Virus record (IMG/VR): IMGVR_UViG_3300029928_000003
From: a virus
Lineage: Duplodnaviria; Caudoviricetes
Strand: one strand, 5' to 3'
Length of the DNA stretch: 64,000 bases
Below are positions 3,489 through 53,669 of the stretch, piece by piece (position 1 is the stretch's first letter; the number at the start of each line of letters is the position of its first letter). The notes below the pieces were generated by a model that was not told the origin of the DNA, did no database searches, and saw nothing but the letters and a program-made list of their open reading frames with translations. A program made the translations under genes and the position numbers.

Positions 3489-3562
3489 GTTCTAATAACT
3501 CAATTGGATAGAGTAACACTCTTCTAAAGTGTAAGTTGTGGGTTCGAGTCCCACTTAGAACA
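3489..3562 (+). tRNA. tRNA-Arg(TCT)
   Basis: GTTCTAA/TTAGAAC acceptor, ACACT-CTTCTAA-AGTGT anticodon arm, canonical T-arm. Confidence 0.95.
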
Positions 3563-3695
3563 CAGATGCGTTAAGGATGTTAATTATTTTTGTTTTATAA
3601 AATATTATGTTATTGAGAAATAATATATGGTTAGAGAATTTTATAATTTTTCGTGAATTAAAAAGTGTTATGTTATTGTGAAATAACATAACACT

Positions 3696-4045: not shown

Positions 4046-4087
4046 AATATATTTAATTAGTTGGATTCCTTTTTTTAATTTAAAATT

Positions 4088-4354
4088 ATGAAACATTATA
4101 TAGATTTAGAAGAAGTTTTAAAAAACTACACAGAAGTAGTAGTTCTTTCTTATGGTTATATGCAGTACAATCGCATATTTGGAAATCATTATGAACCATT
4201 TGCTCATAAAAGGCAAATTAAGTTTACTATTTCTAATGGAGAATTTTATAATCCTACATTTGAAATAGATGATTTACACCCAGAAGATTTCTATTTTTAT
4301 ATAGAAGATGGGGTTGTTTATGTAGACGATCCTGATATTTGTTGTTATGAATAA
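4088..4354 (+). CDS. hypothetical protein
   Basis: 88-aa ORF. Confidence 0.7.
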   Translation: MKHYIDLEEVLKNYTEVVVLSYGYMQYNRIFGNHYEPFAHKRQIKFTISNGEFYNPTFEIDDLHPEDFYFYIEDGVVYVDDPDICCYE

Positions 4355-4366
4355 AAAATTAGTAAA

Positions 4367-4756
4367 ATGAAAATATTAAAAATAAAATTTGAAAATAAAG
4401 TAAGAGTTAATAATACATATATTGAGTTTTTATATGTAAAAGACGATGATATTCTTTATTTATTAAAGGAATCATTAAATAAAAACTTTAGATATACTGT
4501 AATTAAAAAACTTGAAAATATTGATACAGTATCTAGAGATTTTATTAAAGAGATAGCACCTGCAATTGATGAAACTTTTAAAGCTAAAAAGGTATTTAAT
4601 GCATTATGCAGACCCAATACAGTTTTTGAAGTATTAGTAAAAGATAGCTATAAACCTTGTTTTAATATCGTAGGTTATAGTGAAAATGGTGTTTTAGTTA
4701 CTGTAAATCAATATTATGAATACAAGTTTGAAAACGATAATTTAGTTGTTAAATAA
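4367..4756 (+). CDS. hypothetical protein
   Basis: 129-aa ORF followed by a terminator. Confidence 0.7.
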   Translation: MKILKIKFENKVRVNNTYIEFLYVKDDDILYLLKESLNKNFRYTVIKKLENIDTVSRDFIKEIAPAIDETFKAKKVFNALCRPNTVFEVLVKDSYKPCFNIVGYSENGVLVTVNQYYEYKFENDNLVVK

Positions 4757-4761
4757 ATTAT

Positions 4762-4794
4762 GGGCATACTTTTTAGTATGCCCTTTATTTTTTT
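4762..4794 (+). terminator. Rho-independent terminator
   Basis: GGGCATACT-TTTT-AGTATGCCC followed by a T tract. Confidence 0.8.
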
Positions 4795-4798
4795 AATT

Positions 4799-5101
4799 AT
4801 GAAATATACTATTGAAAATTCTTTTTATGAAATTAAATGTGTAGTAAATTCTATTGCAAATATACAAGAAAAGGTATTTCTTATTAAAACAGATAATGAT
4901 AACTATGCGAATGTGAAGAATGATATTTTATCTATTATAACGCAAATAGTAGGATATAAACCTATTTCTAAAAAGAGATATGATATGCTAAATAGGTTTA
5001 AACCTTCTTTTGAAAACTATTTAAGAAGATATTATAAACTTAGATATAATAAAGATTTAGAATCTTATATATTTACAATAATTATTCCTATAGATAAATG
5101 A
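4799..5101 (+). CDS. hypothetical protein
   Basis: ORF 4760..5101; start moved to the ATG after the terminator. Confidence 0.6.
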   Translation: MKYTIENSFYEIKCVVNSIANIQEKVFLIKTDNDNYANVKNDILSIITQIVGYKPISKKRYDMLNRFKPSFENYLRRYYKLRYNKDLESYIFTIIIPIDK

Positions 5102-5352
5102 ATTCAATAACAATCAATGAGAAATTCTATATAATATTAGATGAAACTCATAAATATAATGATGAGATAGATAAGGTGGAAAATAATTATATTCTTTATA
5201 AAGATAATGCATTATTTAATGCTTATAATCAAACTTATGAAGAATGTGAATTTTCAGATAAAGGTCCAATAATACTTTCTATGGAATCTAAATTTAATAT
5301 TTATAAAATAATAGACGGAGTTTTTATTCCCGAAATAGAAAAATATCTTTAA
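5098..5352 (+). CDS. hypothetical protein
   Basis: 84 aa, ATGA overlap with the previous gene. Confidence 0.65.
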   Translation: MNSITINEKFYIILDETHKYNDEIDKVENNYILYKDNALFNAYNQTYEECEFSDKGPIILSMESKFNIYKIIDGVFIPEIEKYL

Positions 5353-5359
5353 TTAAAGA

Positions 5360-5391
5360 TTTGTAAAATTACATTAATTATAATAAATTTG
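5360..5391 (+). promoter_or_regulatory. Bacteroidota-type -33/-7 promoter
   Basis: TTTG-N20-TAAATTTG matches the TTTG / TAnnTTTG consensus. Confidence 0.7.
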
Positions 5392-5447
5392 TTATTAGAA
5401 TTAATTTTTTTAATATTAAAAATAATAAATTAAATTTTTAAAAAACT

Positions 5448-5615
5448 ATGAAAAAAATATTTTTTGCGGTAATTGCCGCTAGTTTATTTATGGTATCTTG
5501 TGGTAATACTAATAAAGCAAATACGGTTAAAGATACTACGATTGTTGATACAGCTAATGTAGATTCTACAATGATTGATTCTCTTGCTGTAGATTCTGCA
5601 TCAGCAGTTCACTAA
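5448..5615 (+). CDS. small lipoprotein (55 aa) with repeated D-S/T motifs
   Basis: MKKIFFAVIAASLFMVSCGNTNKANTVKDTTIVDTANVDSTMIDSLAVDSASAVH; signal peptide II with VSC lipobox; below the ORF-track cutoff. Confidence 0.85.
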   Translation: MKKIFFAVIAASLFMVSCGNTNKANTVKDTTIVDTANVDSTMIDSLAVDSASAVH

Positions 5616-5664
5616 TTTAATATTCTGTTTTCTTAAAAGTTTCAGTAAAAAACTTTTAATTTTA

Positions 5665-5736
5665 GCTCTTGTGGAGTAATGGTTAGCTCGTCAGATTTTC
5701 ATTCTGGAAATTTGGGTTCAATTCCCAACAAGAGTA
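5665..5736 (+). tRNA. tRNA-Glu(TTC)
   Basis: GCTCTTG/CAAGAGT acceptor, TCAGA-TTTTCAT-TCTGG, T-loop TTCAATT. Confidence 0.9.
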
Positions 5737-5802
5737 CTTTTTGTTTTCCATTTTGATTGTTGTTTTATTATTATTCTTACTAGTAATTAGTAGGAATAAT
5801 AT

Positions 5803-5875
5803 GCGGAAGTAGCTCAGTTGATAGAGCATCAGCCTTCCAAGCTGAGGGTCGCGAGTTTGAGCCTCGTCTTCCGCT
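5803..5875 (+). tRNA. tRNA-Gly(TCC)
   Basis: GCGGAAG/CTTCCGC acceptor, TCAGC-CTTCCAA-GCTGA; T-loop is TTTGAGC rather than TTCGAGC. Confidence 0.92.
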
Positions 5876-5878
5876 CTT
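5859..5878 (+). repeat. 20-bp direct repeat, copy 1 (tRNA-Gly 3' end)
   Basis: GAGCCTCGTCTTCCGCTCTT identical to 11491..11510. Confidence 0.95.
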
Positions 5879-5915
5879 GTTTAATATATAATAATTAAAT
5901 TTATAATAAACGGAG

Positions 5916-6353
5916 TTGTTAATTCCCGCAATTCATGAAAAACTGAATAAGGTTTATGCAAAACACTTTGAAATAAACGTGTTGAAACCTAAAATACTTC
6001 CTAAAGAAGCTTATTACGCTCCAAGAAATCGCTATTTATCAAATGTTTTATTACGTGATTTGAATTGTAATTCCAAGACCTATATCATATACGCATAAAG
6101 ATGTATCCCACAAAATACACGGAAGTAAAAATTATGGGATTGACTCCTTTAGGCGGAAACAAATCTATAGTGTCCGATTATAGATGCAAGGGAAACTCCT
6201 TTATTGCGGTCATAATTCATGAATTTGGACATGGCTTTTATAAGGCATTGTTCTAATCCTAATTGCATAATGTGTGATTACCAAAAACATAAAGGAAAAC
6301 CTTTTGTTTTTATCACCAATTTATGCACGCAACAGACTTCTCTGATTAACTAA
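5916..6353 (+). pseudogene. frameshifted archaemetzincin-like (M54) zinc peptidase
   Basis: Fragments in different frames: AYYAPRNRY; VIIHEFGHGF; HCSNPNCIM...LC, matching the HExGHxxxxxHC-x4-CxM signature. Confidence 0.7.
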
Positions 6354-6661
6354 TATATCTATACGAGCGATGGTAATTGTATAAAATCTAAAAAGTATGG
6401 TAAACTTAGAATCGATTGTTTAGTAATAGGTCTCATTTACTGTATCTTTTAGATATTATATTTACTCTATCTTCATAGACTAAGTAAATAACTATTTATT
6501 AATCTTTTAAAATTTAAATTAAAAATGAAACAAGTAAAAAAAGCAATTAAATGGTATTTAATGAATGTAGAAAAATCTTATGTAAGTCTTCCTGATGGAA
6601 CATTTCCTTACTTTTATATTCATTAAATAAGAAACAATGTTAGAATATATAATTCTAACTT

Positions 6662-6716
6662 ATTGTAATGCTAGCATTGAAGGTTACAACTCCTTATGAA
6701 AAAAGCAGAGTACAAT
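6662..6716 (+). ncRNA. twister ribozyme (type P1, no P3)
   Basis: P1 ATTG/CAAT, TAA, P2 TGCT/AGCA, P4 AAGG/CCTT, pseudoknots TAC/GTA and AG/CT, conserved GA. Confidence 0.8.
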
Positions 6717-6747
6717 TAATTTTCGTTTAATTAAAAAATTAGTAAAG

Positions 6748-7020
6748 ATGAGACATTTAAGTATTTTATTATTTCTTTTAATGGGTTTTTCATTAAGTTC
6801 CCAAACTTATAAAATTCAAGGTAATAATATTATATGTATGCAGAAAGTAGATAAATTAACTTCTTTTACTTATCAAGATAAAGATGGTACAATTTATCCT
6901 GTATATATAAATAGTAAAGGTAAGTTTTACATTAAAAAGATTTCTAAGAAGACTGGTAAAGAATATAGATATTATCTTCCTAAAGAAATTCAAGAACAAT
7001 TAAATCAATTATATAATTAA
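6748..7020 (+). CDS. secreted hypothetical protein
   Basis: N-terminal signal peptide; C-terminal KISKKTGKEYRYYL. Confidence 0.75.
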   Translation: MRHLSILLFLLMGFSLSSQTYKIQGNNIICMQKVDKLTSFTYQDKDGTIYPVYINSKGKFYIKKISKKTGKEYRYYLPKEIQEQLNQLYN

Positions 7021-7024
7021 AAAT

Positions 7025-8329
7025 ATGCCACAAAGAGGATATTTTGTTTCTCCTAGAGATGGACGAACATATAAATATGGACAATAGGTAACTATTGGTA
7101 ATAAAGTATATCAAGAGAATTCAGACGGATCTCGTACTCTTATTAGATATTCTAATGGTACTCCTAATTACGATCTTACCCCTACTGGTTCTTATATAAC
7201 AAGAATAGAAAACCCAGATAGCGCGGGCTATGTTAATGGACGTTGGTATAATAAAGCCTATACTGATAAACATAAAAATGGCCCGCGTGTTTGGGATTCT
7301 AATTAGATAGGAATAGGTATTGACACAAGAGAAAATAATAATCCAGTTGTACAATAGTATTTACGAAATACTGGTCAATATAAATATATTAATGAAGATG
7401 ATGAACATTTTGTAAGGCAAAGTACTATTAAAGAAAAAGATGACACTCTTAATAGATTAATGAGAAAGTATAATATTAATATTAACTTATCTCCTAATAA
7501 GAGAGCTATGGCTTTAGGTATGATATATCAAGGACTAGCTAATCAATTGTTCAATCCTAAAACCCCATTAGCAAGACAACTTCAAAATGCTTTTACTAAT
7601 GGTACCGATAAACAATTTGCAGATTCTATAACAAATTTCTATAATGTATTCTAGAATGGTAGATTTCGAGAAAGAGCAAAATAGAATCAAGAATATTGGA
7701 GTACCAGACTGTATAATGGCGGTAAAATTAGATAGTTTTAGACTGGGGGAAAATCTCCAGAATAGAGTGCTGTAAATAGAGCACAGTCTCCTTATGGGGA
7801 ATATTATAAAGCATAGGATGTTAATGAAAGTATACCATGGTATATTTCTCGTGCAGCAGCTAGATATATAAAAGATAATATTGCTAGTTGGTTTCCTTCG
7901 GGAGTATCTAATTGCACTTTAACTGCTACTCATTGGGTAGATCCTGAAAATAATCTTATGAGAGCCGCAAGTATTTGGAATAATCCTAATAATTATAATT
8001 ATAGTCAAATACCTTCAGATATTGCGATTCCGGGCAATTTAATAATTGCCCAAAATCCATCCAATAAGACTTTTCATACTATGATGATAAGTGGCTTTGC
8101 TGATAAAGATTACCAGTATAATTTTCATGGAAATAAAGTATATCCTGTACATAAAGGAGATATATTAGTAAATTATAGTCGTGGTGGAAATAATCAAAGT
8201 GATTTTGTAAATAACATACCTTTATCAGTTTACTTAGATAATAGCGAAGGGAAGAATAAAATTAGATATTATAGGTACAACTATCCAGATTCTGTATTAT
8301 TAAATGAAATTAAAATTACTCCTCATTAA
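7025..8329 (+). CDS. TAG-recoded 434-aa protein; putative lysozyme-like plus CHAP/NlpC-P60-like domains
   Basis: Single frame ATG to TAA with 9 in-frame TAG and no TAA/TGA; joins track ORFs 7460 and 7958; motifs IENP...IGIGID, NCT...HTMM, GGKI-RQFQTGG. Confidence 0.8.
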
Positions 8330-8332
8330 AAT

Positions 8333-9940
8333 ATGACTAAAACAAAATTAATAAATAAAAAAGAATCTATACAATTCAATTTACCTAATGGTACTAAATC
8401 TCCAGTATTTAAAAATGGGGATGAAGCAGCTGAATGGTATGTACAAAACTTTCCTAGAACTGGTTATCATATAACCACTTAGCAACCCCTTTCCCAATAG
8501 CCGAATAATCCTACAGTAACTTTACCAGAGATTACTGTATATCCTAATGTGGCAGCTAAAAAATAGGCAGAAGAAGATCAGAATAATAAAGAGTAGATAA
8601 TTAATGGTAATTATTTCGGCCATAAATTTACCCCTACAGAAGCTAATATTAATTATTATTTAAACTTATATGATAAAGATAAATAGGTTCATAACGCAAC
8701 TGATTCTAAAGAATGGGCTAAATTTGCTTTAGCTAATGCCGTTACAGGTGCAGGTCTTTATGGTATAGGTTCTGCTGTATTAGCATCTCCTACTTTAACT
8801 ACTGTCGGTAAAATAGGGGCTGATATTGGTTTGGGTTATGTAGGAGGAAAAGGAGTCGATTAGACTTCTAAAGCTATTACTGGAAAAACTTTTGGTTAGA
8901 ATTTAGGTGATGCAGTAACTAATAATACTTCTCTTGCATTGACCCCTGAATTAGCTGACATGCTTAATCCTGGATATTTACTTGCATTTAATAATGTTTA
9001 TGGATTAAGAAATAAAGCATTATCTTATTTCAAATCTAAATCACCAGAACTTAAAGCTATAGGTAAAACTATGGAATTTAAAACCGAGAATACAGTAGGT
9101 TCTGAAATGTTTGAATCTCCTAATATTTGGAATATTTCGGAGAAACATTAGAGGGCTTATCCTGTTGAAGTAAATAAAGCACTTCCAATATATTTACAAA
9201 AGCCAGCATTGGATGCTATGCGTAAAAAATATATTTTATTCATGAAAGTTCCTATTAGATCTAAAATTCCAGAAGTAGATGATTTGGCTAAGGCACTTAC
9301 TTAGGTTAGAGGGCGTGCAAAAAGTTATTACTAGTCTAGAAAATATAGAAAAAAATTCAGATAGTTTTTAGAAGATAATGCACTTAATAAAGATCTTGAA
9401 GGCACCTATATTCATAGTATAGAAGATCGTTTAGATACTAATCCTACTATGTTAGGTATGAGCTCAAATATTTTGACGCAGGGGGCATAGATGTATCATG
9501 GGGCAATGATAAGCCCTTATAGATTTCATAATAATTTTGTTACTCCTTTTCATGAATATGCACATGCGGCTAATTAGTTCGGTACTTATAATCCTACTAC
9601 TAAGTAGATTGAGATAATTGATCCAACTAGAGATTTAATACAAGATTATAATAAAAAAATGATACAATCATTACCTATTAATCCAGAATTTGATACAACA
9701 TCTAAATATTGGAAATATGTAATAAATGAAAAGGAAGTGGCAGCAAATATGTTGCCTTTGCAAATATTCATGGAAGACCACGGTTATTCTCCAAAGTAGA
9801 TGGTTAATTTTCTAATTAAAAATAATTTTTTAGATAAAAACGCATATAAATACTATTATAATGCCTTAGGTAAAGATGGGCTTACTACTTTAATAGAAAG
9901 AACATTGAAAAAAGGCGGTAAATTAACTAAAAAGAAATGA
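8333..9940 (+). CDS. TAG-recoded 535-aa protein with Gly-rich hydrophobic segment and C-terminal zincin domain
   Basis: Single frame ATG to TGA with 15 in-frame TAG; HEYAH at 9551-9565 and downstream E-x2-A; ends KKGGKLTKKK. Confidence 0.85.
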
Positions 9941-10095
9941 TAACATATAACAATACATCAGAACAAAGAAAATTTCTTGAAAAATATTTAAAAGAACAAG
10001 AAGAATATAAAAGAAAATTGGAACAATATAAAAAAGATAAAAAGGCTGGGAAAAATCCTGACCCGTCTTTTATAATTAATCATACAGTAATTTAA
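9937..10095 (+). CDS. 52-aa charged protein, TAG-free (candidate immunity protein)
   Basis: ATGA overlap with the zincin gene; fills the gap exactly; all three Gln codons are CAA. Confidence 0.65.
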   Translation: MITYNNTSEQRKFLEKYLKEQEEYKRKLEQYKKDKKAGKNPDPSFIINHTVI

Positions 10096-10097
10096 TT

Positions 10098-11390
10098 ATG
10101 CCAACTATTTTATCAGATAACACTAGAGTACAATAGTCTGTAATAAACCCTTATGTAGGAAATTTAAAAAATCAATTAAAACCTAAAGATATTAAAAAAA
10201 TGTCTTTACCCATATAGGCTACGTATGCTCTTTCTAAAGCAATTAATAATAATAAGAAAAAAAGATTAGTAGTTCGTTCTAATACAAAACCACAAGAACC
10301 TGCAGATAATACTAGAGTACAATAGCCTATAAATATTGAACATAGAACTGATAAAGAATAGTTGTAGCATGACTACCCTCAAAACGCACCAGTTTCAGAT
10401 CCTATAACAACTGGTATTAATTATTCCTTACCTGTTATAGGCACAGCGTTAACTGCTGTTGATTTTTATAACGGTCTTAAGGATATTAAAAATAACGGTT
10501 TTAACTTAAATAATACAACATAGACATTTCTTGCAGGTGTTCCATTTTTATCAAAAATGGGTGCTATTACTAAACCTTACAGAATAGGGGCTACAAAGAG
10601 AGCTTTGGAAACGGTTATGAGATCTTCTGGTTTTGGGACTCCTTTTCCAGCAAGATTGGAGCTAAAAGATATAGTACATACAGACCCCTCCAGGCTTATC
10701 CCATTAGCAGCTTATACTCTTACAGGAGCTAGAATAGGCCCTAAAGGATATTATAACTCACTTAATGATTTTACAAAACATCCAGGTCACCATTTTTATA
10801 ATCCTAAAGGAAAGGTACGGTATTATACTGGATTCAGCGATCGTCCGGATAACGATCTTTCTTTTAGATTTCTAAATTAGAATGATATGGTAGATGCTTT
10901 TTTATATAATAAAAAGATATGTCCTTGGTATGGATATGAAAGGACTAATATAGGGGATAATTTTGGAATTCATGCTGATTATATTGCACAAAAATATGCA
11001 GATAAAGCAAGTGATATTCCAGTATATGAAGGTGCTTATAGATCTTTCTTAAAGGTTAGAGATAAACCAAAAATTATAGGTTCTGATGGTAGTAATGATG
11101 GATTCCCACGGATAAATAATACTTAGTTAGATGCAGGAGGACATCTTGTAGAAATAGGCGACTTAATAGGAGATAAAGTATATCGTTATTAGGATATTTG
11201 GAAATTTAACCCTGAAGACTATCTAAACAGATGGGGTCGCCGAATGGGTTTAACATCTAGTGCTCTTAGAAAATATATATCTTACGAGGGTTTAAAATTA
11301 GTTGATAAATTAGGTACACCCGTTATTACTAGAACTCCTTGGAGTTATATAGAAGATATGTCCAAACTAAATAAGTTATATTTTCCCTAA
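10098..11390 (+). CDS. TAG-recoded 430-aa protein (effector/cargo-like)
   Basis: Single frame ATG to TAA with 9 in-frame TAG; joins ORFs 10557 and 10887; duplicated DNTRVQQ; LPVIGTALTAVD segment. Confidence 0.82.
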
Positions 11391-11442
11391 TATGGCTTTA
11401 CCAGAAATATTTAATACAAAATAATTAGATGAAAGATAAGAT

Positions 11443-11507
11443 GATTCGCTAGCTCAGCTGGTAGAGCACAACACTTTTAATGTTAGGTTCGAGCCTCGTC
11501 TTCCGCT
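11443..11507 (+). pseudogene. chimeric tRNA: 5' part of tRNA-Lys(TTT) fused to the 3' end of tRNA-Gly
   Basis: Intact D arm and CAACA-CTTTTAA-TGTT arm; variable loop and 5' T-stem missing; 3' end equals tRNA-Gly and cannot pair with GATTCGC. Confidence 0.8.
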
Positions 11508-11510
11508 CTT
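11491..11510 (+). repeat. 20-bp direct repeat, copy 2
   Basis: Identical to 5859..5878. Confidence 0.95.
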
Positions 11511-11574
11511 TAATTACAGTAAATATTATATTAAATATCTTCCCGATATAAATTTAAAAAAATAATCTAGTATT

Positions 11575-11662: not shown

Positions 11663-11696
11663 ATCCCTGATTAGGTCGCTCTAGTCAGGGATTTTT
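11663..11696 (+). terminator. Rho-independent terminator
   Basis: ATCCCTGATTAG/CTAGTCAGGGAT followed by T tract. Confidence 0.8.
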
Positions 11697-22015: not shown

Positions 22016-24294
22016 TGGCTGAATTAATTGCAATTGTAGGAGAGAGTGGTCTTTAAGGAATTTTAACATTTTTATTTTGCCATAAATCAAATATTTTTAT
22101 TATATTTGTATTATAATCATAATATAATACAAGTATGAAAAGAACTTATAAAATTTTAACGAAATTACACAAAAAACCTGGAATTTATATTATTTCTTGC
22201 ACAGAGACCGATAAAGTATATATTGGGGAAAATTTAGATATTGATGCACGATAGGTTATGAAAGATGATACCGCAGGCCACTTTAACAAATCCGTTTAAA
22301 ATTGGGAAGCCTCGATTCAAATTATTGTGAAATAATTGAGGTAATCAATTACGAACTATATGAATAGCATAAAAGTAATATAGACGTTTAACGACTAGCA
22401 GATAGATAGCTAAATTAATTCTGCCACGAAATACGGACATTTTATAAATTGTATGTGAATATAAAATATAAAGTGAAGAGATAGTCTAATCTACATATTA
22501 ATGAATATAAATTGTAGAGTGTAAGATAAAGAGCTTACAGTTAATACAGTATGAGCGGAAAAACAACAAGTATTAGGAATTTGAATCCTAAAGAAACTTT
22601 TATTATTTCTACTACTGGTAAAAGACCTGGAATTAGGGGAGCTAAAAAATTATACCCTTCTGTAGAATTAACTAAAGATTCATTTAAAGGTAACTTTTAT
22701 GAAACCTCTAATGTTGATAATATAGGAAAGATGATGGCATTAGTTTCTAGTAAAAGACCTGAAATAAAAGTTATTATTGTTGATGATTAATAAAAGCCAC
22801 AAAATATTTTGAAAAGTCATAATATATTATATTTAATGTAATAAAAATATATAAATATAATGATATGAATAAAAAATATAATGACTTTGAAATTATTGAA
22901 TTACATTCAAAAGGTTTAACAGATAAAGAAATTGCAGAAATTTTAGGAGTAAATCCTAATAATTTAGCAAGAAAAAGAAATAGATTAGGTTTAAAACCTA
23001 ATAAAAATATCAGAGAAACTTATATATTAACTAAAGAAGAGTTAGAAATCATTTGTGGTACTCTTTTAGGAGATTCTACAATTAGATATGTTCATAAAGG
23101 ATGTAAATTTCCAAATTTAACTTTTACATATGGATTAAATCAGAGAGAATATTTTGATTTTTTATCTAATAAATTAGTTAATTTAAAATCATCAGTTAAA
23201 GAATACGATTCTAAATATATAAGAACTAACAGAGAAATTGCTAAAAGATTAGTATTTACTGGAAAGAACATGAAATGTTTAGTAGATATATATAATTCTT
23301 TTTATCCAGATAATAAAAAGATAATTCCTATGGCATTTGTAGAAAAATATTTTACAAAAAGGAGTTTATATTATTTATTTATGGATGATGGAAGTTATGA
23401 TGTTTCTAAAAATAGTTATATAATAAACACGCAATGTTTTTCATACGAAAATCTTCAAGAATTTGTTAGTTTTTTATTTAAAAAATTTAATTTAGAATTT
23501 AATATAAAAACTGATAGAAGTTTATATTTAAAACATGTTTCTAATGATATTATGTATAAAATTTTATCTGATAATAATGAATGTGATTCTATGAAATATA
23601 AATATGGTGATAGTCATCATAAAACTCCGTTAAACAAGGAAACTCCTGAAAAGGACAATCTTGTGCTAAACCCTCAAGAAATTGAGGAAAAAGCTAAACG
23701 ACTAGAAGTGATGCCTAACGAGAAAGACGGGGCTATAAAATCTTCCACGAAAGCGGGGCACTGTTCAAAGTAAAATTCGTGAGAATATGAAATGAATTAA
23801 AGATATAGTCTGAACTATACATATAAATAAAAGTATAGAATTGGAAGATAAAGAGCTTCCAAGATAACAAATTGTATCAATATATACAAGCATTTGAATC
23901 AATGGATCGAGTAGACGAGAAAGGGTTCTCAAAGTTTACTGATATGGCGAAACATGCCTATGAAGTTTTAAAGAAAGGAAAGAGTCTAAGGGATGATCTT
24001 TATGTATGTATTTTAACGCATAGTGAAAATATAGGAGATAATATTAATCCTTATTATAAGATTAAGACATTAGGCAAACTCCTAGATTCAGTAATTACTT
24101 TAGAGGGATTGTTCACGTATGTATTATTTACAAAAATTATAAAAGATCCAACTACTGATAAAATTATGTATAAGTTTATAACTAATTCGGATGGAACTTG
24201 TACTGCTAAAACTCCAATTGGTTTATTTGAAGACAATCTAATTGATAATGATCTTGATTTTGTTATTAAAAAGATAAAGGAATATAATGAGTAA
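22015..24294 (+). CDS. AAA ATPase (Sak4/AAA_24-like), 3 exons: 22015-22050, 22554-22787, 23875-24294 (229 aa)
   Basis: Splicing restores Walker A GESG|SGKT and Walker B IIVDD|YQY. Confidence 0.9.
22076..22108 (+). promoter_or_regulatory. intron-internal Bacteroidota-type promoter
   Basis: TTTG-N21-TATATTTG upstream of the endonuclease remnant. Confidence 0.65.
22135..22299 (+). pseudogene. truncated GIY-YIG homing endonuclease in intron 1
   Basis: PGIYIISCTETDKVYIGE then TAG at 22252 and TAA at 22297. Confidence 0.8.
22788..23874 (+). mobile_element. group I intron 2 (in Walker B)
   Basis: GAU|...G boundaries; P7 GACTA (23700) / TAGTC; 3' AAGATAAAGAGCTT element shared with intron 1. Confidence 0.9.
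22865..23773 (+). CDS. intron-encoded LAGLIDADG homing endonuclease with N-terminal HTH
   Basis: ICGTLLGDS and LYYLFMDDGS; GLTDKEIAEILG. Confidence 0.9.
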   Translation: MNKKYNDFEIIELHSKGLTDKEIAEILGVNPNNLARKRNRLGLKPNKNIRETYILTKEELEIICGTLLGDSTIRYVHKGCKFPNLTFTYGLNQREYFDFLSNKLVNLKSSVKEYDSKYIRTNREIAKRLVFTGKNMKCLVDIYNSFYPDNKKIIPMAFVEKYFTKRSLYYLFMDDGSYDVSKNSYIINTQCFSYENLQEFVSFLFKKFNLEFNIKTDRSLYLKHVSNDIMYKILSDNNECDSMKYKYGDSHHKTPLNKETPEKDNLVLNPQEIEEKAKRLEVMPNEKDGAIKSSTKAGHCSK

Positions 24295-37609: not shown

Positions 37610-39708
37610 TATATTTAGTTAGTAATAATAATACTCTATTTGAATCCAATAATTATAAAAAGATATCTTGTAAAGATGCATTACAATTATTAGATAAATT
37701 AAAGCTAATACAGTTAGACAGTGAGACTTCTGGACTAGATTGTCATACTAAAGTATTACTTACTTTACAATTAGGTAATAAAGATAATCAAATAGTATTT
37801 GATTGGACTACTATTTCTAATGAGGATAAATCTTCTATTAAGAAGTTCTTAGAAAGTGAAGATAAGACTTGGCTAGCATGGAATGCTGCGTTTGATTTAA
37901 CTTTTCTTTATGTTCAACATATATATCCTAAGAATATTATTGATGGAATGATATTAGATAAACTGATATTTTTAGGATATCCTCCATCATTAACTCCAGA
38001 TTTATTTACTAATCAATTTGGGTATAAACCAGTATATGATGCTAATAATGTTTTAAAACATTATGAATTAAGTTATTCTTTAAAAGCGGCCGCTGATAGG
38101 TGGATACATACAGATATTGATAAATCAGTCAGAGGCCAGATTATTACTAAAGGATTAACCGATTCTGTAGTAGTTTATGCCGCAAATGATGTTAGGTGGT
38201 TAGAAGATATATATAATGAACAATTAAAAGAGCTAACTAAACAAGATTTATTACGAGCAGCTAAATTTGAATGTGAATTCATTAAATCTGTAGCTTATAC
38301 TAAATATTGTGGTATTCATTTAGATGCAGATAAGTGGAAAGCTAAAATGAAAAAAGACCAAAATAATTTACAAGTGGCTATTAAAGAATTAAATAATTAT
38401 GTAGTAAATCTATATAATAAAGATAAGTCCTATAAAGCTTTTACAACATATGTTCAACCAGATTTATTTGGATTTACTACTCCTGGGATTGCTTGTAATA
38501 TAAATTGGAGTAGTTCTAAACAGGTAATACTCTTATTTGAACAACTTGGAATACAGGTTAAAACATTTGATAAGAAGACTAGAAAAGAAAAGAAATCTAT
38601 AGAAGAAAAACAATTAGCTCCACAATCTGATAAGTTTCCCATTATCCCATTATTTTTAAGATATCAGGGTGCTTCTAAACTTGTATCTACTTATGGTGAT
38701 AATTGGCTAAAAGCAATTAATCCTAAGACTGGAAGAATCCATTTAGAATTACATTCTATTGGTACTGACACCAGTAGAATGAGTAGTGGTGGGGGTGTTT
38801 ATAAATTAAACGCCCAGAATTTACCAAATGATGCTGAAACCAGAGCTTGTTTTACTGCCGAAGAGGGTAATTCCTGGCTTAGTTGTGACTACAAAGGGCA
38901 AGAAAGTTGTTTAATAGCTTCGGTATCTAAAGATAAAGCTATGATTAAAGAACTTAGTAAACCTAATGGTGATATTCATAGCTTAGTGGCTTATATGTCT
39001 TATCCTAGTATAATTCCTAGGAATACTCCTATAGAAAATATTAAGAAAGAATATCACGACGCTAGACAGAATGCTAAAGGAATTGAATTCTCGATCAATT
39101 ATGGCGGTGATGCTCATACAATAGCTAATAATAAGGGTATTTCTATTAAAGAAGCAGAAAAAATCTATAATGACTTTATGAAGGGTTTTCCAGGTATTCA
39201 TAAGTATCAACAATATTGTAGAAATACAATACTACAGAAAGGCTATATACTTATGAATCCTATTTTAGGACACCGTGCCCATCTATATGACGGAGAATGG
39301 TTAAAGAAGATGTCTAATAAAATGGAAGATCCCGAATTTGTTAATTATTATTGGCAAATGCGTAAATTAAGTCCTAATTGTGATACTGTTAAAGATGTAA
39401 ATAGATTTAATAAGAGAAAAGCTGCTTCTGAAAAACAATCTATAAACTATCGTATACAAAACCGTGGGGCTTGCTGCTTTAAATTAGCTTCTATTAAGTT
39501 ATTTAATTGGATAGTTAATAATAACTATCAAGATAAAGTACTTATGTGTGTCCCTGCCCATGATGAATGGAATCTTGAATGCCCTAAAGACATGCAAGAT
39601 ATTGTGGGTAAAGTTTTAGTGCAATGTATGGTTGCAGGAGGTAGACCCTTCTGTCCTAACGTATTCTTAGGGGCTGACTTAGAAATTTCAGATCATTGGG
39701 TTCATTAA
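37606..39708 (+). CDS. polA: family A DNA polymerase with 3'-5' exonuclease
   Basis: DSETSG exo I; DYKGQE, RQNAKGIEFSINYG, AHDE. Confidence 0.95.
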   Translation: MIYLVSNNNTLFESNNYKKISCKDALQLLDKLKLIQLDSETSGLDCHTKVLLTLQLGNKDNQIVFDWTTISNEDKSSIKKFLESEDKTWLAWNAAFDLTFLYVQHIYPKNIIDGMILDKLIFLGYPPSLTPDLFTNQFGYKPVYDANNVLKHYELSYSLKAAADRWIHTDIDKSVRGQIITKGLTDSVVVYAANDVRWLEDIYNEQLKELTKQDLLRAAKFECEFIKSVAYTKYCGIHLDADKWKAKMKKDQNNLQVAIKELNNYVVNLYNKDKSYKAFTTYVQPDLFGFTTPGIACNINWSSSKQVILLFEQLGIQVKTFDKKTRKEKKSIEEKQLAPQSDKFPIIPLFLRYQGASKLVSTYGDNWLKAINPKTGRIHLELHSIGTDTSRMSSGGGVYKLNAQNLPNDAETRACFTAEEGNSWLSCDYKGQESCLIASVSKDKAMIKELSKPNGDIHSLVAYMSYPSIIPRNTPIENIKKEYHDARQNAKGIEFSINYGGDAHTIANNKGISIKEAEKIYNDFMKGFPGIHKYQQYCRNTILQKGYILMNPILGHRAHLYDGEWLKKMSNKMEDPEFVNYYWQMRKLSPNCDTVKDVNRFNKRKAASEKQSINYRIQNRGACCFKLASIKLFNWIVNNNYQDKVLMCVPAHDEWNLECPKDMQDIVGKVLVQCMVAGGRPFCPNVFLGADLEISDHWVH

Positions 39709-39722
39709 TAAATATTAATTCT

Positions 39723-42700
39723 ATGAATATAACTAAACGAGACGGATCGATTGAAAAATTTGATATTAATAAAATTATTAATGCTGTAGGTAAAGCATAT
39801 AAATCAGAAGGATATACAATTAATGATGATATTATAGATGAATTAAAAAATCTTACTACTACATATATTTCAGATAATATTTCAGTAGAAAAAATACAAG
39901 ATGAAGTAGAGCAAATTTTAATGGATAATGCTCCTTTTGATGTAGCTAAAGCATATATTACATATAGAGAGAAACATAAACAATCAAGACTTATTAGAGA
40001 AAGAATTGATTATATGAATAAATATAGTCAATCAAATGATAATGCTGCATCTTCTAGTGAAACTGATGGTAATTCTAATGTTACCATTAAAAATGTAGCT
40101 AATCTTGAAGGAGAAGTATATAAAACTACTAATAGAATCATTCAAAGACAACGAATGAAAGATAAGTTAAATGAAATGTTTCCAGAAGTAGCTAAACAAT
40201 ATGAAGAAGATTTAAATCATCATATTATATATACGCACGATGAAGCTAGTACTCCTGTTTTAAAGAATTATTGTATGGCAGTATCTTTATATCCTTTAAT
40301 AGAATATGGTACTTCTACAATGGATGGATTAAAAGCTTCTGCTCCTAAAAACTTAGATAGCTTTTGTGGACAATTTGTTAATCTTGTATTCTTATTAAGT
40401 TCTCAATGTAAAGGAGCTGTTGGGTTTGGAGAGTTCTTTAATTTCTTTGATTATTATTGTGCTAAAGAATGGGGGCCTAATTATCATCTTAAAGAAGATA
40501 TAATTGTAGATACAGATTATGTAGTTAATCCAAAAACCATTGGTCAAAAAATAGAACAATATTTTCAACAAGTTGTCTATTCATTAAATCAACCAGCAGG
40601 TAATAGATCATATCAATCCCCATTTACTAACTTTAATTATTTTGACAGTAATTATTGGCATAGTTTATTTGATGATTTCTGTTTTCCTGATGGTAGTAAA
40701 CCTGTATGGGAAAGAGTAGATTTTCTTCAAAGAAAATTTATGAATTGGTTTAATGAGGAAAGAACTAAAACTTTACTTACATATCCTGTAGAATCTATGT
40801 GTTTATTACATGATGGTAAAGATGTAATTGATAAATCATATAAAGATTTAGCTGCTGAAATGTGGTCTAAAGGACATAGTTTCTTTGTGTACTTATCTGA
40901 TAATCCAGATGCGGTTGCAAGTTGCTGTTTTAGCAAGGATACTAAATTTTTATGGAAATCTTCTACAAGTGAGGTTCATATTAGTACCTTTAAAGAATTT
41001 CTTGATCTTCCCTATAAACAAACGAAAGAAAATTTTAAAGTATTTCATAATGGTTCATGGATAAAAGGTAAAATAATTTCTCTTCCAAATAGACAAATGT
41101 ATAAAGTTATCACTTATAATAATAAAGAATTTATTATGAGTGATAACCATATTAATGTTACGTATGATGGAGAAAAAAGAACAGAAGATTTAACAACAGA
41201 TGATTATCTTATGTTCAATACTTCAACACTTTCACCTGTTACAGAAAATAACGAACATTTAACTTATGAACAAGGTTTGTTAATAGGGTTATTCTTAGGT
41301 GATGGAACCTTTGGAAATTATGTATGTCTTGATGGTAGTGTTCATAGTTTTCAACTCTCTCTAAATAAAGAAAAATGGGAAAAAGTACAAAACCATTTAT
41401 CAAAAATTGGAGATTTTAGATTAGGTACTATATATAATAATGTATATCCTATTCATTGTTATAATAAAGAATTAACTACATTTATAGCGAAATGGACTGG
41501 TAATGAACCTAATAAGACTTCTGCTTTAAATAAATCTTTAAATCTAGATTGTTTTTTACAGTCAGTAGAATTTAGGAGAGGTATTCTTGATGGTTGGTAT
41601 ATTACAGATGGAGGTAATTCAAATAGATGCTATACTATAAGCAAACATTTGGTTGAAAGAATGGAAGCTTTATGTACTACATTAGGGTTGCAAACTATAC
41701 TTAATATATCAGATAGGACAGATGAAGCTGTAATTATTAGAGGCCAAGAATTTAACAGAAATTACCCATTATATTGTCTTAGATGGTATGTTGATGCTAA
41801 TCATAGATGCAATAAAACTAAAGATAAATCTTGGAAGAAAAAGAATAATAGTATATATTGGAAAATTAAATCCATAGAGCCAATAGAATATAAAGATAAT
41901 ATATATTGTGTTCAATGTGATAATCAAGATGAACCCTATTTTACATTACCTAATGGGTTAATTACTCATAACTGTAGATTGAGGAATGAAGTAGTTAATA
42001 ATACTTTTAGTTCAACTACTGGACTTACGGGTGTACAAACAGGTTCAGTTAATGTAATTACTCTTAACTTAAATAGAATAGTACAAGATTGGTATAAAGA
42101 ATATAATAAATCAAAAGATAAGTTTGATTTAGATACTTTGAAACCCAGTTTTAAAGCTTATTTATTAAAGATTCTTGAAAGAGTTTATAAATATCAAGTA
42201 GCTTATAAAACAATGTTGTTTGAACTTGAGAAACAAGGTATGCTTACTGCTTCAAAGGCTGGATATATTTCAATGAAGAAACTATTTTCTACTATTGGTG
42301 TGAACGGTTTTAATGAAATGGCTCAATTTATGGGGCTTAAAGTAAGTAATAATACTGAATACAAAGACTTTATTGCTTATGTATTTAATATTATCTCTAC
42401 TTTCTGTAAAGAAAAGTCTACAAAAAATTATCTCTTTAACTTAGAAGTAGTGCCAGCAGAGAGTCTGGGTTCAAAAAACTATAATTGGGATAAAAAAGAT
42501 GGTTATATTGTGCCAAATAATGAAGTATTGTATAATTCTTATATATACGATGCACATGATCCTAATACTTCTGTTTTAGATAAGTTTGTACTACAAGGAG
42601 GTAAAGTAGCAAAAGCATCATCTGGAGGACAAGCACTTCATTGTAATCTAGAGGATCATTTAAGTAAAGAACAATATCTTAAACTTATAGAATTTGCTAT

Positions 42701-42917
42701 ACAAAAAGGTACATCATATTTCACTTTTAATATTCCAAATAGTCAATGTGATAATTGTGGTTTTATTACTAAACATCCAATAAAAAAATGTCCTATATGT
42801 GGTAGTAATAATATTACTCAGTGGACAAGAACAATTGGATATTTAAGACCTATTAAAGCTATGGATTATTATAGGCAAATAGAAGCAAACAATAGAGTAT
42901 ATAGTAAAACAATTTAA
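39723..42917 (+). CDS. nrdD: anaerobic (class III) ribonucleotide reductase with intein
   Basis: ATP cone MNITKRDG; SC|intein|CRL; CxxC...CPxC; RTIGYL glycyl-radical loop. Confidence 0.95.
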   Translation: MNITKRDGSIEKFDINKIINAVGKAYKSEGYTINDDIIDELKNLTTTYISDNISVEKIQDEVEQILMDNAPFDVAKAYITYREKHKQSRLIRERIDYMNKYSQSNDNAASSSETDGNSNVTIKNVANLEGEVYKTTNRIIQRQRMKDKLNEMFPEVAKQYEEDLNHHIIYTHDEASTPVLKNYCMAVSLYPLIEYGTSTMDGLKASAPKNLDSFCGQFVNLVFLLSSQCKGAVGFGEFFNFFDYYCAKEWGPNYHLKEDIIVDTDYVVNPKTIGQKIEQYFQQVVYSLNQPAGNRSYQSPFTNFNYFDSNYWHSLFDDFCFPDGSKPVWERVDFLQRKFMNWFNEERTKTLLTYPVESMCLLHDGKDVIDKSYKDLAAEMWSKGHSFFVYLSDNPDAVASCCFSKDTKFLWKSSTSEVHISTFKEFLDLPYKQTKENFKVFHNGSWIKGKIISLPNRQMYKVITYNNKEFIMSDNHINVTYDGEKRTEDLTTDDYLMFNTSTLSPVTENNEHLTYEQGLLIGLFLGDGTFGNYVCLDGSVHSFQLSLNKEKWEKVQNHLSKIGDFRLGTIYNNVYPIHCYNKELTTFIAKWTGNEPNKTSALNKSLNLDCFLQSVEFRRGILDGWYITDGGNSNRCYTISKHLVERMEALCTTLGLQTILNISDRTDEAVIIRGQEFNRNYPLYCLRWYVDANHRCNKTKDKSWKKKNNSIYWKIKSIEPIEYKDNIYCVQCDNQDEPYFTLPNGLITHNCRLRNEVVNNTFSSTTGLTGVQTGSVNVITLNLNRIVQDWYKEYNKSKDKFDLDTLKPSFKAYLLKILERVYKYQVAYKTMLFELEKQGMLTASKAGYISMKKLFSTIGVNGFNEMAQFMGLKVSNNTEYKDFIAYVFNIISTFCKEKSTKNYLFNLEVVPAESLGSKNYNWDKKDGYIVPNNEVLYNSYIYDAHDPNTSVLDKFVLQGGKVAKASSGGQALHCNLEDHLSKEQYLKLIEFAIQKGTSYFTFNIPNSQCDNCGFITKHPIKKCPICGSNNITQWTRTIGYLRPIKAMDYYRQIEANNRVYSKTI
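40926..41972 (+). mobile_element. intein (349 aa) with LAGLIDADG endonuclease
   Basis: Starts CFSKDT, ends ITHN before C; LLIGLFLGDG and GILDGWYITDG blocks. Confidence 0.93.
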
Positions 42918-49650: not shown

Positions 49651-51273
49651 ATGAAATTAAATTCTACAAAAATGGGTATTTGGTTTACTTCAGATACCCA
49701 TTTTTATCATAAAAACATTATTAAGTTTACTAATAGACCTTGGAATACAGTAGAAGAAATGAATAATGCATTAATTAACAATTGGAATGAAGTTGTTAAA
49801 CCTAATGATACTGTATTTCATTTAGGAGACTTTGCTTTTACTTCTAATGGTAATTGGAAAAAACTTATTAATGAATTAAATGGAAAAATCTATCTTATAT
49901 TAGGAAATCATAAAATTTACGAATTTTAACAAGGAAACCTGAGGAAACCTAATTATATTTGCGCTGTAATAAATTTATTATTTTATGAGACAGCACAAAT
50001 TAAACATTGATTATTTTAATGAGATTAATTCTCATGAGAAGGCGTATGTATTAGGTTTCTTATATGCAGATGGATCAAATAGGGGAGATGGTATAATATT
50101 TTCACAGAATGTTGAAAGAATAGATATTCTTGAGAAGATAAAGAAGGCTTTAGATTCTGAAGCTCCTATTAGAGAACGAGTTTCAGGACTTTTTGTTCTT
50201 GAACTGTTTAGCAAAAAAAATGGTTAAGGACGTTGAACGGCTAGGTGTTGTTAGAAACAAGTTCCTAATATTACAATTTCCAACTAAAGAGTTGGTTCCA
50301 GAGGAGTTTATGTCTTCTTTTATTCTCGGATATTTTGACGGAGATGGATGCATTTGGAACGGTAAGAGAAAGAAAATGATAGTTAAAGATTCTTCACGCA
50401 AAGAAGGATTTAGAGAAAGGATAGTACATAATGTAAAATTTACTTTTACTGGATGTGTATCCTTTATTGCTCCTCTACAAGAGTATTTGGTTAAGGTAGG
50501 TATAGTAAAGAGAAAAACTAAATTAAACTACTCCAAAGCAAAGAATCCAAATAATTCTACTTGTGACAAAGTGTGTACTATGGAGTACTCTGGCAGAGGA
50601 CAGATAAAGAATCTCTATGAGTATATGTATTCAAAAGCCCCTATTTGGTGCAATGAAAAGAAGTTAAAATTTGAAAAAATATTTTGTGCTTCAGATGAGA
50701 AATCACCTGTAGAAACTGTGTTAACTGAGGAAACGGCTGAGAGGCTAATCCTCAACCAAGCCTCTAATGTGGAGGAAGGCTCATCGACTATCCCTGAGAT
50801 GGGAGTAGGACCAAGTGGCCCGAAATACACAGCCCCTAACGAGCAAAGTCAAGGGTGTGAGATAGTCAGTTCTCATATGAATAAGGAAGTATGAGCTATG
50901 GGTATGAAATACCCTATCGGTACTAGTCTAACGAACTAGTATAAACACCAAGGACGAATTACATAGTCCAGGTAAATATGTATTAGATTTATTTGAAGGG
51001 GTATACAATCAATTGTTAATTAAAATTGATAATAGAAAAGTATATTTAAATCATTATCCTTTTCTTTGTTATGCTGGAACATATAGAGGTAAAGATTATA
51101 ATACAATACAATTATTTGGACATGTACATAGTAATAAAGAAAATACTCATGGTAAAGATAAAGATAGATTAAAATATTTATTTCCTACTCAATATGATGT
51201 AGGAGTAGATAATAATAATTATTATCCAGTATCTTGGAATCAAATATTAGAAATTATAAATAAATATGGCTAA
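49651..51273 (+). CDS. calcineurin-like phosphoesterase, 2 exons: 49651-49911 and 50953-51273
   Basis: SDTHF, HLGDF, GNH|D restored by splicing, LNHYP, FGHVH, DVGVD. Confidence 0.9.
49912..50952 (+). mobile_element. group I intron 3
   Basis: CAU|...G boundaries; P7 GACTAT/ATAGTC; TGTG/CACA P3. Confidence 0.88.
49985..50894 (+). pseudogene. LAGLIDADG homing endonuclease split by an extra A in the A8 run at 50213-50220
   Basis: AYVLGFLYADGS in ORF1 and SFILGYFDGDGC in ORF2; removing one A fuses them (~302 aa). Confidence 0.85.
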
Positions 51274-52460: not shown

Positions 52461-52932
52461 ATTTATATCTGAAGAACCTTTTTATTATTATGGTTCAAAG
52501 TTTGCTGAAAAGGGGAATATTTTAGAAACAAAAGGTAGAGATACAATTATTAATTTAGATACAGGTTGTAAAATAGAAGGACTCGATGAAGTCATTGGAC
52601 AACTTGTAGACAGTTGTGAATTTTATCCAGAAGATATACATTCAATAGTAAGTAAATCGGGTGAAACTACAGCTACAATAGACAATGTTAATCATCCTAA
52701 ACATTACACATGGTTAAAAGATAAGTGTGGAATTGAGGTAATTGATATAGTAAGACACATGAACTTCAATTTAGGACAAATATTAAAATATATTCTAAGA
52801 TTAGGGCATAAAAATGATAATAACTTTAGTAACTATGAGAAGATATTATCTGATTTGCATAAAGCTGAGTATTATTTAAAAATGGAAATTAATAGGGTAG
52901 ATAAATTATGCAAGAACAATGGAAATCATTGA
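52450..52932 (+). CDS. DUF3310 protein (T7 gp1.7-like nucleotide kinase family)
   Basis: DNVNHPKHY, IEVID, FNLG..LKY..R, DL.KA.YYL. Confidence 0.85.
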   Translation: MLYKFISEEPFYYYGSKFAEKGNILETKGRDTIINLDTGCKIEGLDEVIGQLVDSCEFYPEDIHSIVSKSGETTATIDNVNHPKHYTWLKDKCGIEVIDIVRHMNFNLGQILKYILRLGHKNDNNFSNYEKILSDLHKAEYYLKMEINRVDKLCKNNGNH

Positions 52933-53669
52933 GTAAATACAAGGGTTTAATAGAAGTTAGTACTCTTGGTAGAGTTAGAAGATTACATGGAAAATCAGAT
53001 ATATTAAAACCTAAACTGGATAAAAGAGGATACTTATGTGTTCATATACGAATATCTAAATTGGGGATAAATAAAATGGTTAAAATACACAGGTTAGTAG
53101 CCGAAGCTTTTATACCTAATCCAAATAATTTACCTATTGTAAATCATAAAAATGAAATAAAAACAGATAATAGAGTAGGAAATCTTGAATGGTGTACCCA
53201 TAAATATAATGTAAATTATGGAACAGGATTAAAAAGAAGAGCTTATAATTCTAGAAATCAAGTACACAGAAGTTGTCCTATATTACAATATTCATTAAAT
53301 GGAGAGTTTATACAAGAGTTTCCTTCATTTAAGGAAGTACAAAGGTATTTAGGTAAATCATATAGTAATGTTTGGAATGTATGCAATGGTAGGGGGATTA
53401 GTGCTTATGGATATAAATGGAGTTATAAATACATAGAAGGTAAAAAAATAGAAATTCCTAATTCCTATACTTGGTTTAAAAAGAATTATGGTTTAGATTT
53501 ATCAATAATTTTACAAGACTTATCATTTGATATAGCTTGTGCCATTAAGTATATTCTTAGGTCAGGCCATAAGTCTGAGCAAGATGTACCTGATAAAGCT
53601 AAAGAAATCGAAGATCTTAAGAAAGCTATTTGGTATATTAATGATAGAATTAAAGAACTAGAACAGTGA
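52908..53669 (+). CDS. NUMOD4-HNH-NUMOD1 homing endonuclease fused to a second DUF3310-like domain
   Basis: EVSTLGRVR, HRLVAEAF, VNHKN..KTDN...NLEW, AYGYKW; then AIKYILRSGHK...EDLKKAIWYI. Confidence 0.88.
   Translation: MQEQWKSLSKYKGLIEVSTLGRVRRLHGKSDILKPKLDKRGYLCVHIRISKLGINKMVKIHRLVAEAFIPNPNNLPIVNHKNEIKTDNRVGNLEWCTHKYNVNYGTGLKRRAYNSRNQVHRSCPILQYSLNGEFIQEFPSFKEVQRYLGKSYSNVWNVCNGRGISAYGYKWSYKYIEGKKIEIPNSYTWFKKNYGLDLSIILQDLSFDIACAIKYILRSGHKSEQDVPDKAKEIEDLKKAIWYINDRIKELEQ

Follow-up and report, generated by a model that had tools for sequence, protein, structure and literature searches.

A putative Lys/Gly hybrid tRNA pseudogene at the edge of a variable gene cassette in a TAG-recoded phage genome

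Analysis of a 64,000-nucleotide (nt) stretch of a viral genome (Duplodnaviria; Caudoviricetes; IMG/VR record IMGVR_UViG_3300029928_000003; hereafter the window), belonging to a large gut phage that we take, following its label, to be crAss-like (Zeta-type), led to the recognition of a 5.6-kb segment bracketed by two copies of the 3′ end of a tRNA-Gly gene, the right copy being fused to the 5′ part of a tRNA-Lys gene. This arrangement is best accounted for, with a probability of roughly 0.6, by illegitimate recombination between a tRNA-Lys and a tRNA-Gly gene at or near their T-loops, which would have joined a cassette-bearing genome to a Glu-Gly-Gln tRNA array. The case combines the signatures of hybrid tRNA genes and of duplicated tRNA 3′ ends without an integrase; it is neither a new mobile element nor a new mechanism, and its main value lies in the precise reconstruction and in a link to the host. 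It appears to document, to the base, how accessory genes are remodelled in a crAss-like phage that is strictly lytic and integrase-free, with junctions at tRNA genes, one of them caught as a Lys/Gly hybrid.

The slot in question is bordered on the left by an intact tRNA-Gly(UCC) gene of host type (5803..5876; ARAGORN, Rfam 66.6 bits; 56% GC in an AT-rich window of about 28% GC) and on the right by a tRNA-Gln(UUG) gene of the AT-rich phage type (11575..11647; ARAGORN and Rfam); these and all other features annotated between 5665 and 11692 lie on the plus strand. A repeat search identified a direct repeat of 24 nt that differs at one position (T/C at 5858/11490), whose left copy (5855..5878) spans tRNA-Gly from its T-loop to its 3′ end and a further 2 nt, and whose right copy (11487..11510) was also recovered by DNA search. 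It contains an exact 20-mer (5859-5878 = 11491-11510), confirming the repeat reported in a preliminary description of this DNA; its 18-mer core, with up to 2 mismatches, occurs at these two sites only in the window and was never obtained in 100 shuffles. The right copy forms the end of the Lys/Gly hybrid (11443..11510), whose first 42 nt (11443-11484) are identical at 42/42 positions to nt 1-42 of bacterial tRNA-Lys(UUU) genes and are followed by A, by GGTTCGAGCC, which matches a Lys-type T-loop context at 10/10 positions, and then by the tRNA-Gly 3′ end. From GAGCC onward the hybrid is tRNA-Gly sequence, with 20 nt identical to Gly, and since its T-loop is of Lys type the lone mismatch in the 24-nt repeat would be a Lys-type base. 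The earlier proposal that the right copy is fused at the T-loop to a tRNA-Lys 5′ part is thereby upheld.

GAGCC is the segment that tRNA-Lys and tRNA-Gly have in common, and their T-loops agree at 8/10 positions; the hybrid consists of the 5′ part of one tRNA and the 3′ part of another, joined within a shared segment. Compared with an intact tRNA-Lys, about 8 nt are absent from it (the variable loop and the 5′ strand of the T-stem). Because it possesses neither an acceptor stem (its acceptor strands are non-complementary) nor a T-stem, is called as a tRNA neither by ARAGORN nor by Rfam at E<=1, and folds no better than shuffled sequence (z -1.0), it is predicted to be a dead pseudogene, non-functional as a tRNA. 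An alternative parse requiring an equal number of changes puts the joint at the border of the anticodon stem and the variable loop and adds a loss of 8 nt and a change of T to C, so that the crossover can be placed only between tRNA position 43 and the T-loop.

The hybrid junction is not an assembly artefact, because five independent assemblies carry the same two junctions, which sets aside the assembly chimera considered in the preliminary description. Besides the window, four further assemblies from different samples, found by look-up of exact protein identity, show both junctions letter for letter (JGI 3300013936 Ga0116637_1000002; ENA ERZ808254, ERZ26859183 and ERZ26858504). The five are 99.7-99.9% identical overall, and coverage is 179 in ERZ26859183 and 85 in ERZ26858504.

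The right copy of the repeat seems to retain the native surroundings of the tRNA-Gly 3′ end. The closest different relative (G002, a 91-kb IMG/VR record whose contig also appears in the ENA assembly ERZ808258) has an intact tRNA-Gly, and the 28 nt that follow the right copy in the window match the spacer behind that gene at 23/28 positions in register; 6/200,000 shuffles reach this value, and the match is unique among 127,944 window 28-mers. The flank of the left copy matches the same spacer at 11/28 positions, which is not significant (p about 0.5 to 0.8), and homology of the left flank to this spacer was rejected. The distance from the hybrid to tRNA-Gln is 64 bp, as compared with 65 bp from tRNA-Glu(UUC) (5665..5737; ARAGORN; Rfam 64.6 bits; 100% identical in G002), the left neighbour in the array, to tRNA-Gly. 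Because the native-spacer match is found on the right copy only, and because of the 64/65-bp spacing, the right copy and its spacer (11509..11574, displaced, its first 28 nt being those that match G002) look like the old Gly-to-Gln junction of a tRNA array. Given this native-end signature, the DNA from 5877 to about 11486 would be the later arrival, which supplied a new Gly 3′ end of its own. The duplicated tRNA 3′ end, read in the preliminary description as the mark of an integration site, is in this respect borne out as an insertion or recombination junction.

Comparison with G002 suggests that the content of the slot is exchanged as a unit. The two genomes are 95.5% identical over 4050-5876 and 98-99% identical from 11575 onward, and identity falls from about 99% to nothing right after the last base of tRNA-Gly (5876) and resumes at the first base of tRNA-Gln (11575). 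Between these genes G002 carries 4.8 kb of different TAG-recoded genes (B1-B4), with neither the hybrid tRNA nor the repeat. Inside the slot the two alleles have in common only a 225-bp island, the C-terminal part of A2/B3 (33% amino acid identity between the C-terminal half of the window gene A2 and B3) and a small open reading frame (ORF). As such strong divergence adjoins flanks that are 99% identical, the cassette would have been replaced rather than have drifted in place; and as homology breaks exactly at the last tRNA-Gly and the first tRNA-Gln base, the swapped unit appears to be the Gly-to-Gln stretch (5877-11574) and not the repeat-bracketed interval, the Lys/Gly hybrid and its 64-bp spacer lying inside the variable part. 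The ENA analyses in which the two alleles are found have neighbouring accession numbers, which suggests that the alleles co-circulate. The preliminary description had proposed tRNA genes as anchors for cassette exchange; its premise stands in that content differs between near-identical genomes with breakpoints at tRNA ends, and relatives with flanks 95-99% identical do not all have the same content. As for the tRNA genes being the crossover sites of the swap between A and B cassettes, they may have been, and the conserved tRNA genes may have supplied the homology for swaps in the slot, but the crossovers could lie anywhere in the 95-99% identical flanks. A weak match of G002 B3 to the Pfam family "Recombinase" scored 13.4 bits, under the cut-off of 21.1, and was not counted as evidence.

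No gene for site-specific recombination was detected near these junctions. Among the 33 window ORFs of at least 150 amino acids (aa), that is 3 cassette genes and 30 further ones, none has an integrase, resolvase or transposase Pfam domain, and neither PF00589 nor PF00239 was matched in G002, G003, G004, G006 or G007 (the four besides G002 being 90-100% complete), while positive controls were detected; within the present genome the search covered the 64-kb window, outside which a further 88 kb lie. The absence of an integrase gene from the window, as first described, is confirmed and extends to these five related genomes. The Lys × Gly joint in itself, with only the GAGCC microhomology or a T-loop similarity of 8/10 to support pairing, can be attributed to illegitimate recombination alone, so that the earlier view of homologous and illegitimate recombination as equally possible does not hold for the hybrid joint.

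The simplest course of events would be that two related genomes, during replication or co-infection, underwent a single unequal and illegitimate crossover. Genome one would have had the order Glu-Gly-(peptidase remnant, small ORF with a twister-like RNA, A1-A3)-tRNA-Lys, and genome two a Glu-Gly-64 bp-Gln array, or that array with another cassette that was later lost. A joint between the tRNA-Lys of genome one and the tRNA-Gly of genome two, most simply in their T-loops, would place the left part with the intact tRNA-Gly from genome one next to the Gly 3′ end, the spacer, tRNA-Gln and downstream DNA from genome two. The product would have an intact tRNA-Gly on the left and a dead Lys/Gly hybrid on the right, with no need for a site-specific recombinase, and the 24-nt repeat on the right would be the original 3′ end of the phage's own tRNA-Gly, pushed 5.6 kb downstream and still standing before its native spacer and tRNA-Gln. 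A one-step model of this kind agrees with the left side being less similar to G002 (95.5%) than the right side is (98-99%), which lends it weak support. We infer both the single crossover and the order of events from the product, as none of the ancestral forms was found.

Several results weigh against this reconstruction. A clean joint in the T-loops would not by itself give the hybrid, which also requires the deletion of 8 nt and one substitution; the junction may therefore have decayed, or it may have formed further 5′, at the border of the anticodon stem and variable loop. Only two cassette alleles are known in all, and the spacers upstream of tRNA-Gln show no significant similarity between them; the tight ancestral array was therefore not demonstrated from the tRNA-Gln side, as the spacers are dissimilar. 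An empty site (tRNA-Gly 3′ end, 45-75 nt, tRNA-Gln 5′ end), the allele that the preliminary description had suggested seeking in close relatives, was not present in an exact-pattern scan of IMG/VR, where the sole other allele is the different cassette of G002. A donor in which A3 is followed by an intact tRNA-Lys was found neither in IMG/VR nor among JGI metagenome contigs nor by exact-protein look-ups, and a query with 37 nt of the Lys half for a phage-borne intact tRNA-Lys returned bacterial and provirus contexts only. In addition, a metagenome scan keyed on tRNA-Gln yielded G002-type contigs only, the one other allele again being the different cassette; no A3 relatives were confirmed in IMG/VR, and near and distant DNA searches of GenBank phages with the flanks and with 6400-6760 gave nothing useful.

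Among the other explanations, a two-step history, in which an ancestor with the order Glu-Gly-cassette-Lys-(X)-Gly-Gln later underwent a deletion between the T-loops of tRNA-Lys and the second tRNA-Gly, would also produce the hybrid and is rather unlikely. Deletion hybrids between neighbouring phage tRNA genes are reportedly the classical case (McClain and Foss, in 1984, are said to have described it), the extra 8-nt loss shows continued decay of the hybrid, and a related crAss-like genome (G003) has a tRNA-Lys upstream of a tRNA-Gly, 1.6 kb apart; the argument from synteny is weak, however, because the G003 tRNAs are AT-rich and unrelated in sequence. An intact Gly parent persists upstream of the hybrid, which a simple deletion does not explain, and the two-step history requires one more event and leaves a full tRNA-Gly duplication around the cassette to be explained in its turn; neither a relative with two Gly copies nor an ancestor with an intact tRNA-Lys plus a second tRNA-Gly was found. 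A quite different proposal, that the hybrid is not a scar and is kept by selection as a working tRNA-like signal (for processing, priming or as a decoy), is very improbable. Its inclusion in a transcription unit closed by a strong terminator behind tRNA-Gln and its identity in five assemblies might speak for a function, but assemblies that are 99.7-99.9% identical overall are uninformative on selection, the hybrid is absent from G002, and the lack of both stems, the shuffle-like fold and the failure to match a tRNA model at E<=1 point the other way.

Duplicated tRNA 3′ ends are a textbook mark of integrated elements, and the segment resembles them: its direct repeat runs from the T-loop to the 3′ end, one border keeps a restored tRNA, and at the other border lies the displaced end beside its native flank, a pattern said to be the classical integrase signature; Williams, in 2002, reportedly treated tRNA-targeting integrases and the duplicated tRNA 3′ end at their attachment sites. 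It could accordingly be supposed that the 5.6-kb segment is or was an integrative element at the T-loop-to-3′ end of tRNA-Gly, with the 20-nt block as att core and an integrase acting in trans or since lost, and as this tRNA-Gly is identical to a host gene, a host element aiming there could strike the phage copy. Such an origin is nevertheless improbable: no integrase or resolvase was found in the segment, the window or the five related genomes; the inserted DNA is AT-rich and TAG-recoded, hence native to this phage type and not that of a host element; on the element side the core adjoins a truncated, non-cognate tRNA-Lys, which fits illegitimate recombination and not an attP arm; and the G002 slot holds a partly homologous cassette without any repeat.

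The proposed illegitimate Lys × Gly joint is close to two processes known from other systems. Hybrid tRNA genes are reported from the tRNA cluster of phage T4 (attributed to the same 1984 work of McClain and Foss), and like them the present hybrid joins the 5′ part of one tRNA gene to the 3′ part of another through a similar T-arm or T-loop as a dead by-product; unlike them, where neighbours were deleted and the parents lost, it has its Gly parent intact 5.6 kb upstream, a duplicated Gly 3′ end and a bracketed cassette, and it occurs in a TAG-recoded crAss-like phage with both tRNA halves of host type. The second is homology-facilitated illegitimate recombination, which de Vries and Wackernagel are said to have described in 2002 for natural transformation of bacteria; in both, extended homology lies on one side (here on the left, through tRNA-Gly) and the other side is joined at a GC-rich microhomology of 5 nt, whereas the exchange here would be between phages and not a bacterial transformation. 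The tRNA block, the variable content and the recoded stop codons of the window agree with what is described for Zeta crAss-like phages in the passages of PMC12386605 on these points, namely a tRNA block at the genome start upstream of the replication genes, recoded stop codons and gene content that varies strongly between close relatives; its passages covering the tRNA block and variability mention neither hybrid tRNAs nor tRNAs identical to those of a host, nor cassettes swapped between tRNA genes (PMC12386605).

The tRNA-Gly, the Lys half and a peptidase remnant within the segment all appear to be host-type DNA, and they point to one bacterial lineage. The phage tRNA-Gly is identical at 74/74 positions to the chromosomal tRNA-Gly of a Thr-Tyr-Gly-Thr cluster in the bacterial genome bin G038 (CAVKDU01), and likewise at 74/74 positions to that of a 51%-GC provirus-flank contig (L027); the first 42 nt of the G038 tRNA-Lys equal the Lys half of the hybrid, and G038 also has an intact 220-aa HEFGH lipoprotein peptidase gene. 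A locus of G038 (L083; contig C4 44513-44982) matches window positions 9885-10114 and 10332-10384 and forms an AT-rich islet in a 60%-GC chromosome. It comprises the last codons of an A2-like gene, a whole 52-aa ORF (about 80% at the aa level) and the first codons of an A3-like gene, and it is split by a host miniature inverted-repeat element of about 179 bp with ends CCAAATCGGTCA(T/A)TAGAA; the end motif is matched 34 times in G038, where about 14 copies have their two ends paired, and the phage window contains no match to it. The islet is probably phage DNA resident in a likely host, and fragments may have moved in both directions between the phage slot and a G038-like bacterium. The phage would thus be linked to a host lineage by four independent shared pieces of DNA (tRNA-Gly, tRNA-Lys half, peptidase gene and cassette fragment), which makes the G038-like lineage a good candidate host; such links are scarce for uncultured Zeta-type crAss-like phages.

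The name given to this bin is doubtful, because its SusD/RagB genes, its Bacteroidota-type Thr-Tyr-Gly-Thr cluster and the 57-63% GC of its contigs conflict with it: the bin is titled Wujia chipingensis (Lachnospiraceae), yet SusD/RagB was detected only in Bacteroides among 14 controls. G038 is probably a mislabelled Bacteroidota bin. Another genome, G001, which has the most words in common with the window, was considered as the source of the tRNAs and rejected (tRNA-Gly at 81%, no tRNA-Lys match and, with the query used, no peptidase match); one 84% tRNA-Lys match was found in G008, a genus-mate of G001, and the phage contigs in G001 look mis-binned.

The peptidase remnant (5919..6427) is a host-type HEFGH lipoprotein metallopeptidase gene that is 5′-truncated, without about 67 N-terminal codons, and frameshifted; it was recognised by three-frame reading and nucleotide match, being 91% identical to the intact 220-aa gene P0153 of bacterial contigs L049 and L050 and 87% identical to that of L051 (G038). 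Pfam searches of its fragments gave no match, and its identity was settled by the 91% match to the intact gene. Three sister assemblies have additionally lost 5911-6152, a further decay of the remnant. In the two bacterial contigs with 91% matches the gene sits after that for ribosomal protein S1. The intact gene (L049 7889-8551, L051 10001-10672) is a 31%-GC islet in bacterial DNA of 55-60% GC and occupies two distinct chromosomal settings; in L049 the mini-element hairpin known from G038 comes after it. The gene is probably mobile among gut Bacteroidota.

A wider possibility, which is doubtful and put forward tentatively, is that tRNA genes copied from the host act as portable islands of perfect homology and that the Gly-to-Gln slot is a standing exchange site for TAG-recoded accessory cassettes, through which DNA passes both ways between phage and host. 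This would fit the identity of the tRNA-Gly to that of the host, the truncated host-type peptidase and the host-borne fragment resembling A2, the small ORF and A3. If so, 70-odd bases of this phage would recur unchanged in the host chromosome and in any phage of that host that had captured the same tRNA. Recombination between the two repeats would delete 5,632 bp and leave an intact tRNA-Gly followed by TTTAATTACAGTAAAT and then tRNA-Gln, that is, an empty site.

The preliminary description had listed a decayed peptidase, a twister and a recoded cassette within the interval; the peptidase and three TAG-containing ORFs were recovered, whereas the twister falls below the Rfam gathering threshold (28.7 against 67.2 bits). 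This putative twister-P1-like RNA (6662..6716; RF03160, E 0.005) and a 33-codon ORF (6525..6626) lie in the 225-bp island (6495-6719), which is 89% conserved between the two cassette types and stands just upstream of the recoded genes in both. In G002 a helix of the RNA changes from UGCU/AGCA to UAUU/AAUA, giving two compensatory pairs in one helix, with only two sequences compared. A 90-aa ORF without TAG and without a Pfam family follows (6748..7020), and then the cassette genes A1 (7025..8329; 434 aa, 9 in-frame TAG read as Q), A2 (8333..9940; 535 aa, 15 in-frame TAG) and A3 (10098..11390; 430 aa, 9 in-frame TAG), with a 52-aa ORF (9937..10095) between the last two that is present in both cassette types (43% aa identity). 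The A1, A2 and A3 proteins match no Pfam or PHROG family. The C-terminal domain of A3 (about residues 165-425) belongs to a large unnamed family of 149 clusters that is widespread and sometimes fused to phage lysozyme domains, and no relative of its predicted structure (pLDDT 68.5) was found in the PDB (Foldseek best E 0.5; VIA-align Z <=3.6). Towards its N-terminus A3 contains a 189-bp internal direct repeat (10114-10143 and 10303-10332) with the motif DNTRVQQ twice, for which the host-borne A3-like fragment appears to be single-copy. As an A3 homologue is absent from all 5 more distant related genomes, the cassette is accessory; the tRNA arrays of these five relatives also differ widely.

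Beyond the slot, a strong terminator-like hairpin (11663..11692; 13 pairs and a T run) stands directly 3′ of tRNA-Gln. Between 11.7 and 56 kb, most genes on the plus strand follow the standard code and serve replication and nucleotide metabolism, among them genes for DnaB, primase, a family A DNA polymerase, ligase, a sigma factor, an intein-bearing NrdD, ThyX and several homing endonucleases. Two blocks, 7004-11390 (plus strand) and 57537-64000 (minus strand), form open frames only when TAG is decoded as an amino acid. A near-identical JGI contig of 151,913 bp exists, and relatives of the window helicase are found on viral contigs of 130-200 kb. Two LAGLIDADG and one HNH/NUMOD homing endonuclease genes and the NrdD intein were noted (22823-23770, 50142-50891, 52905-53666 and 39678-42917); such double-strand-break nucleases, plentiful in this genome, could seed illegitimate joins.

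ARAGORN calls five tRNA genes in the window, beginning at 2419 (Leu), 3489 (Arg), 5665 (Glu), 5803 (Gly) and 11575 (Gln). Those for tRNA-Arg (3489-3563) and tRNA-Leu (2419-2504) have an identical 19-nt T-arm segment in common, and this homology could support the same kind of recombination between tRNA genes. Just upstream of tRNA-Leu, at about 2330-2412, a perfect T-arm-like hairpin (ATAGG TTCGATT CCTAT) is followed by ATATCCCA with no tRNA called there; an aberrant tRNA or a further tRNA remnant may be present. In another TAG-recoded phage (L035; IMGVR_UViG_3300045988_095709), a tRNA-Gly with the same 22-nt 3′ end (2826-2899) is located exactly at the switch from TAG-free ORFs to heavily recoded ones, for example one of 1280 aa with 21 TAG.

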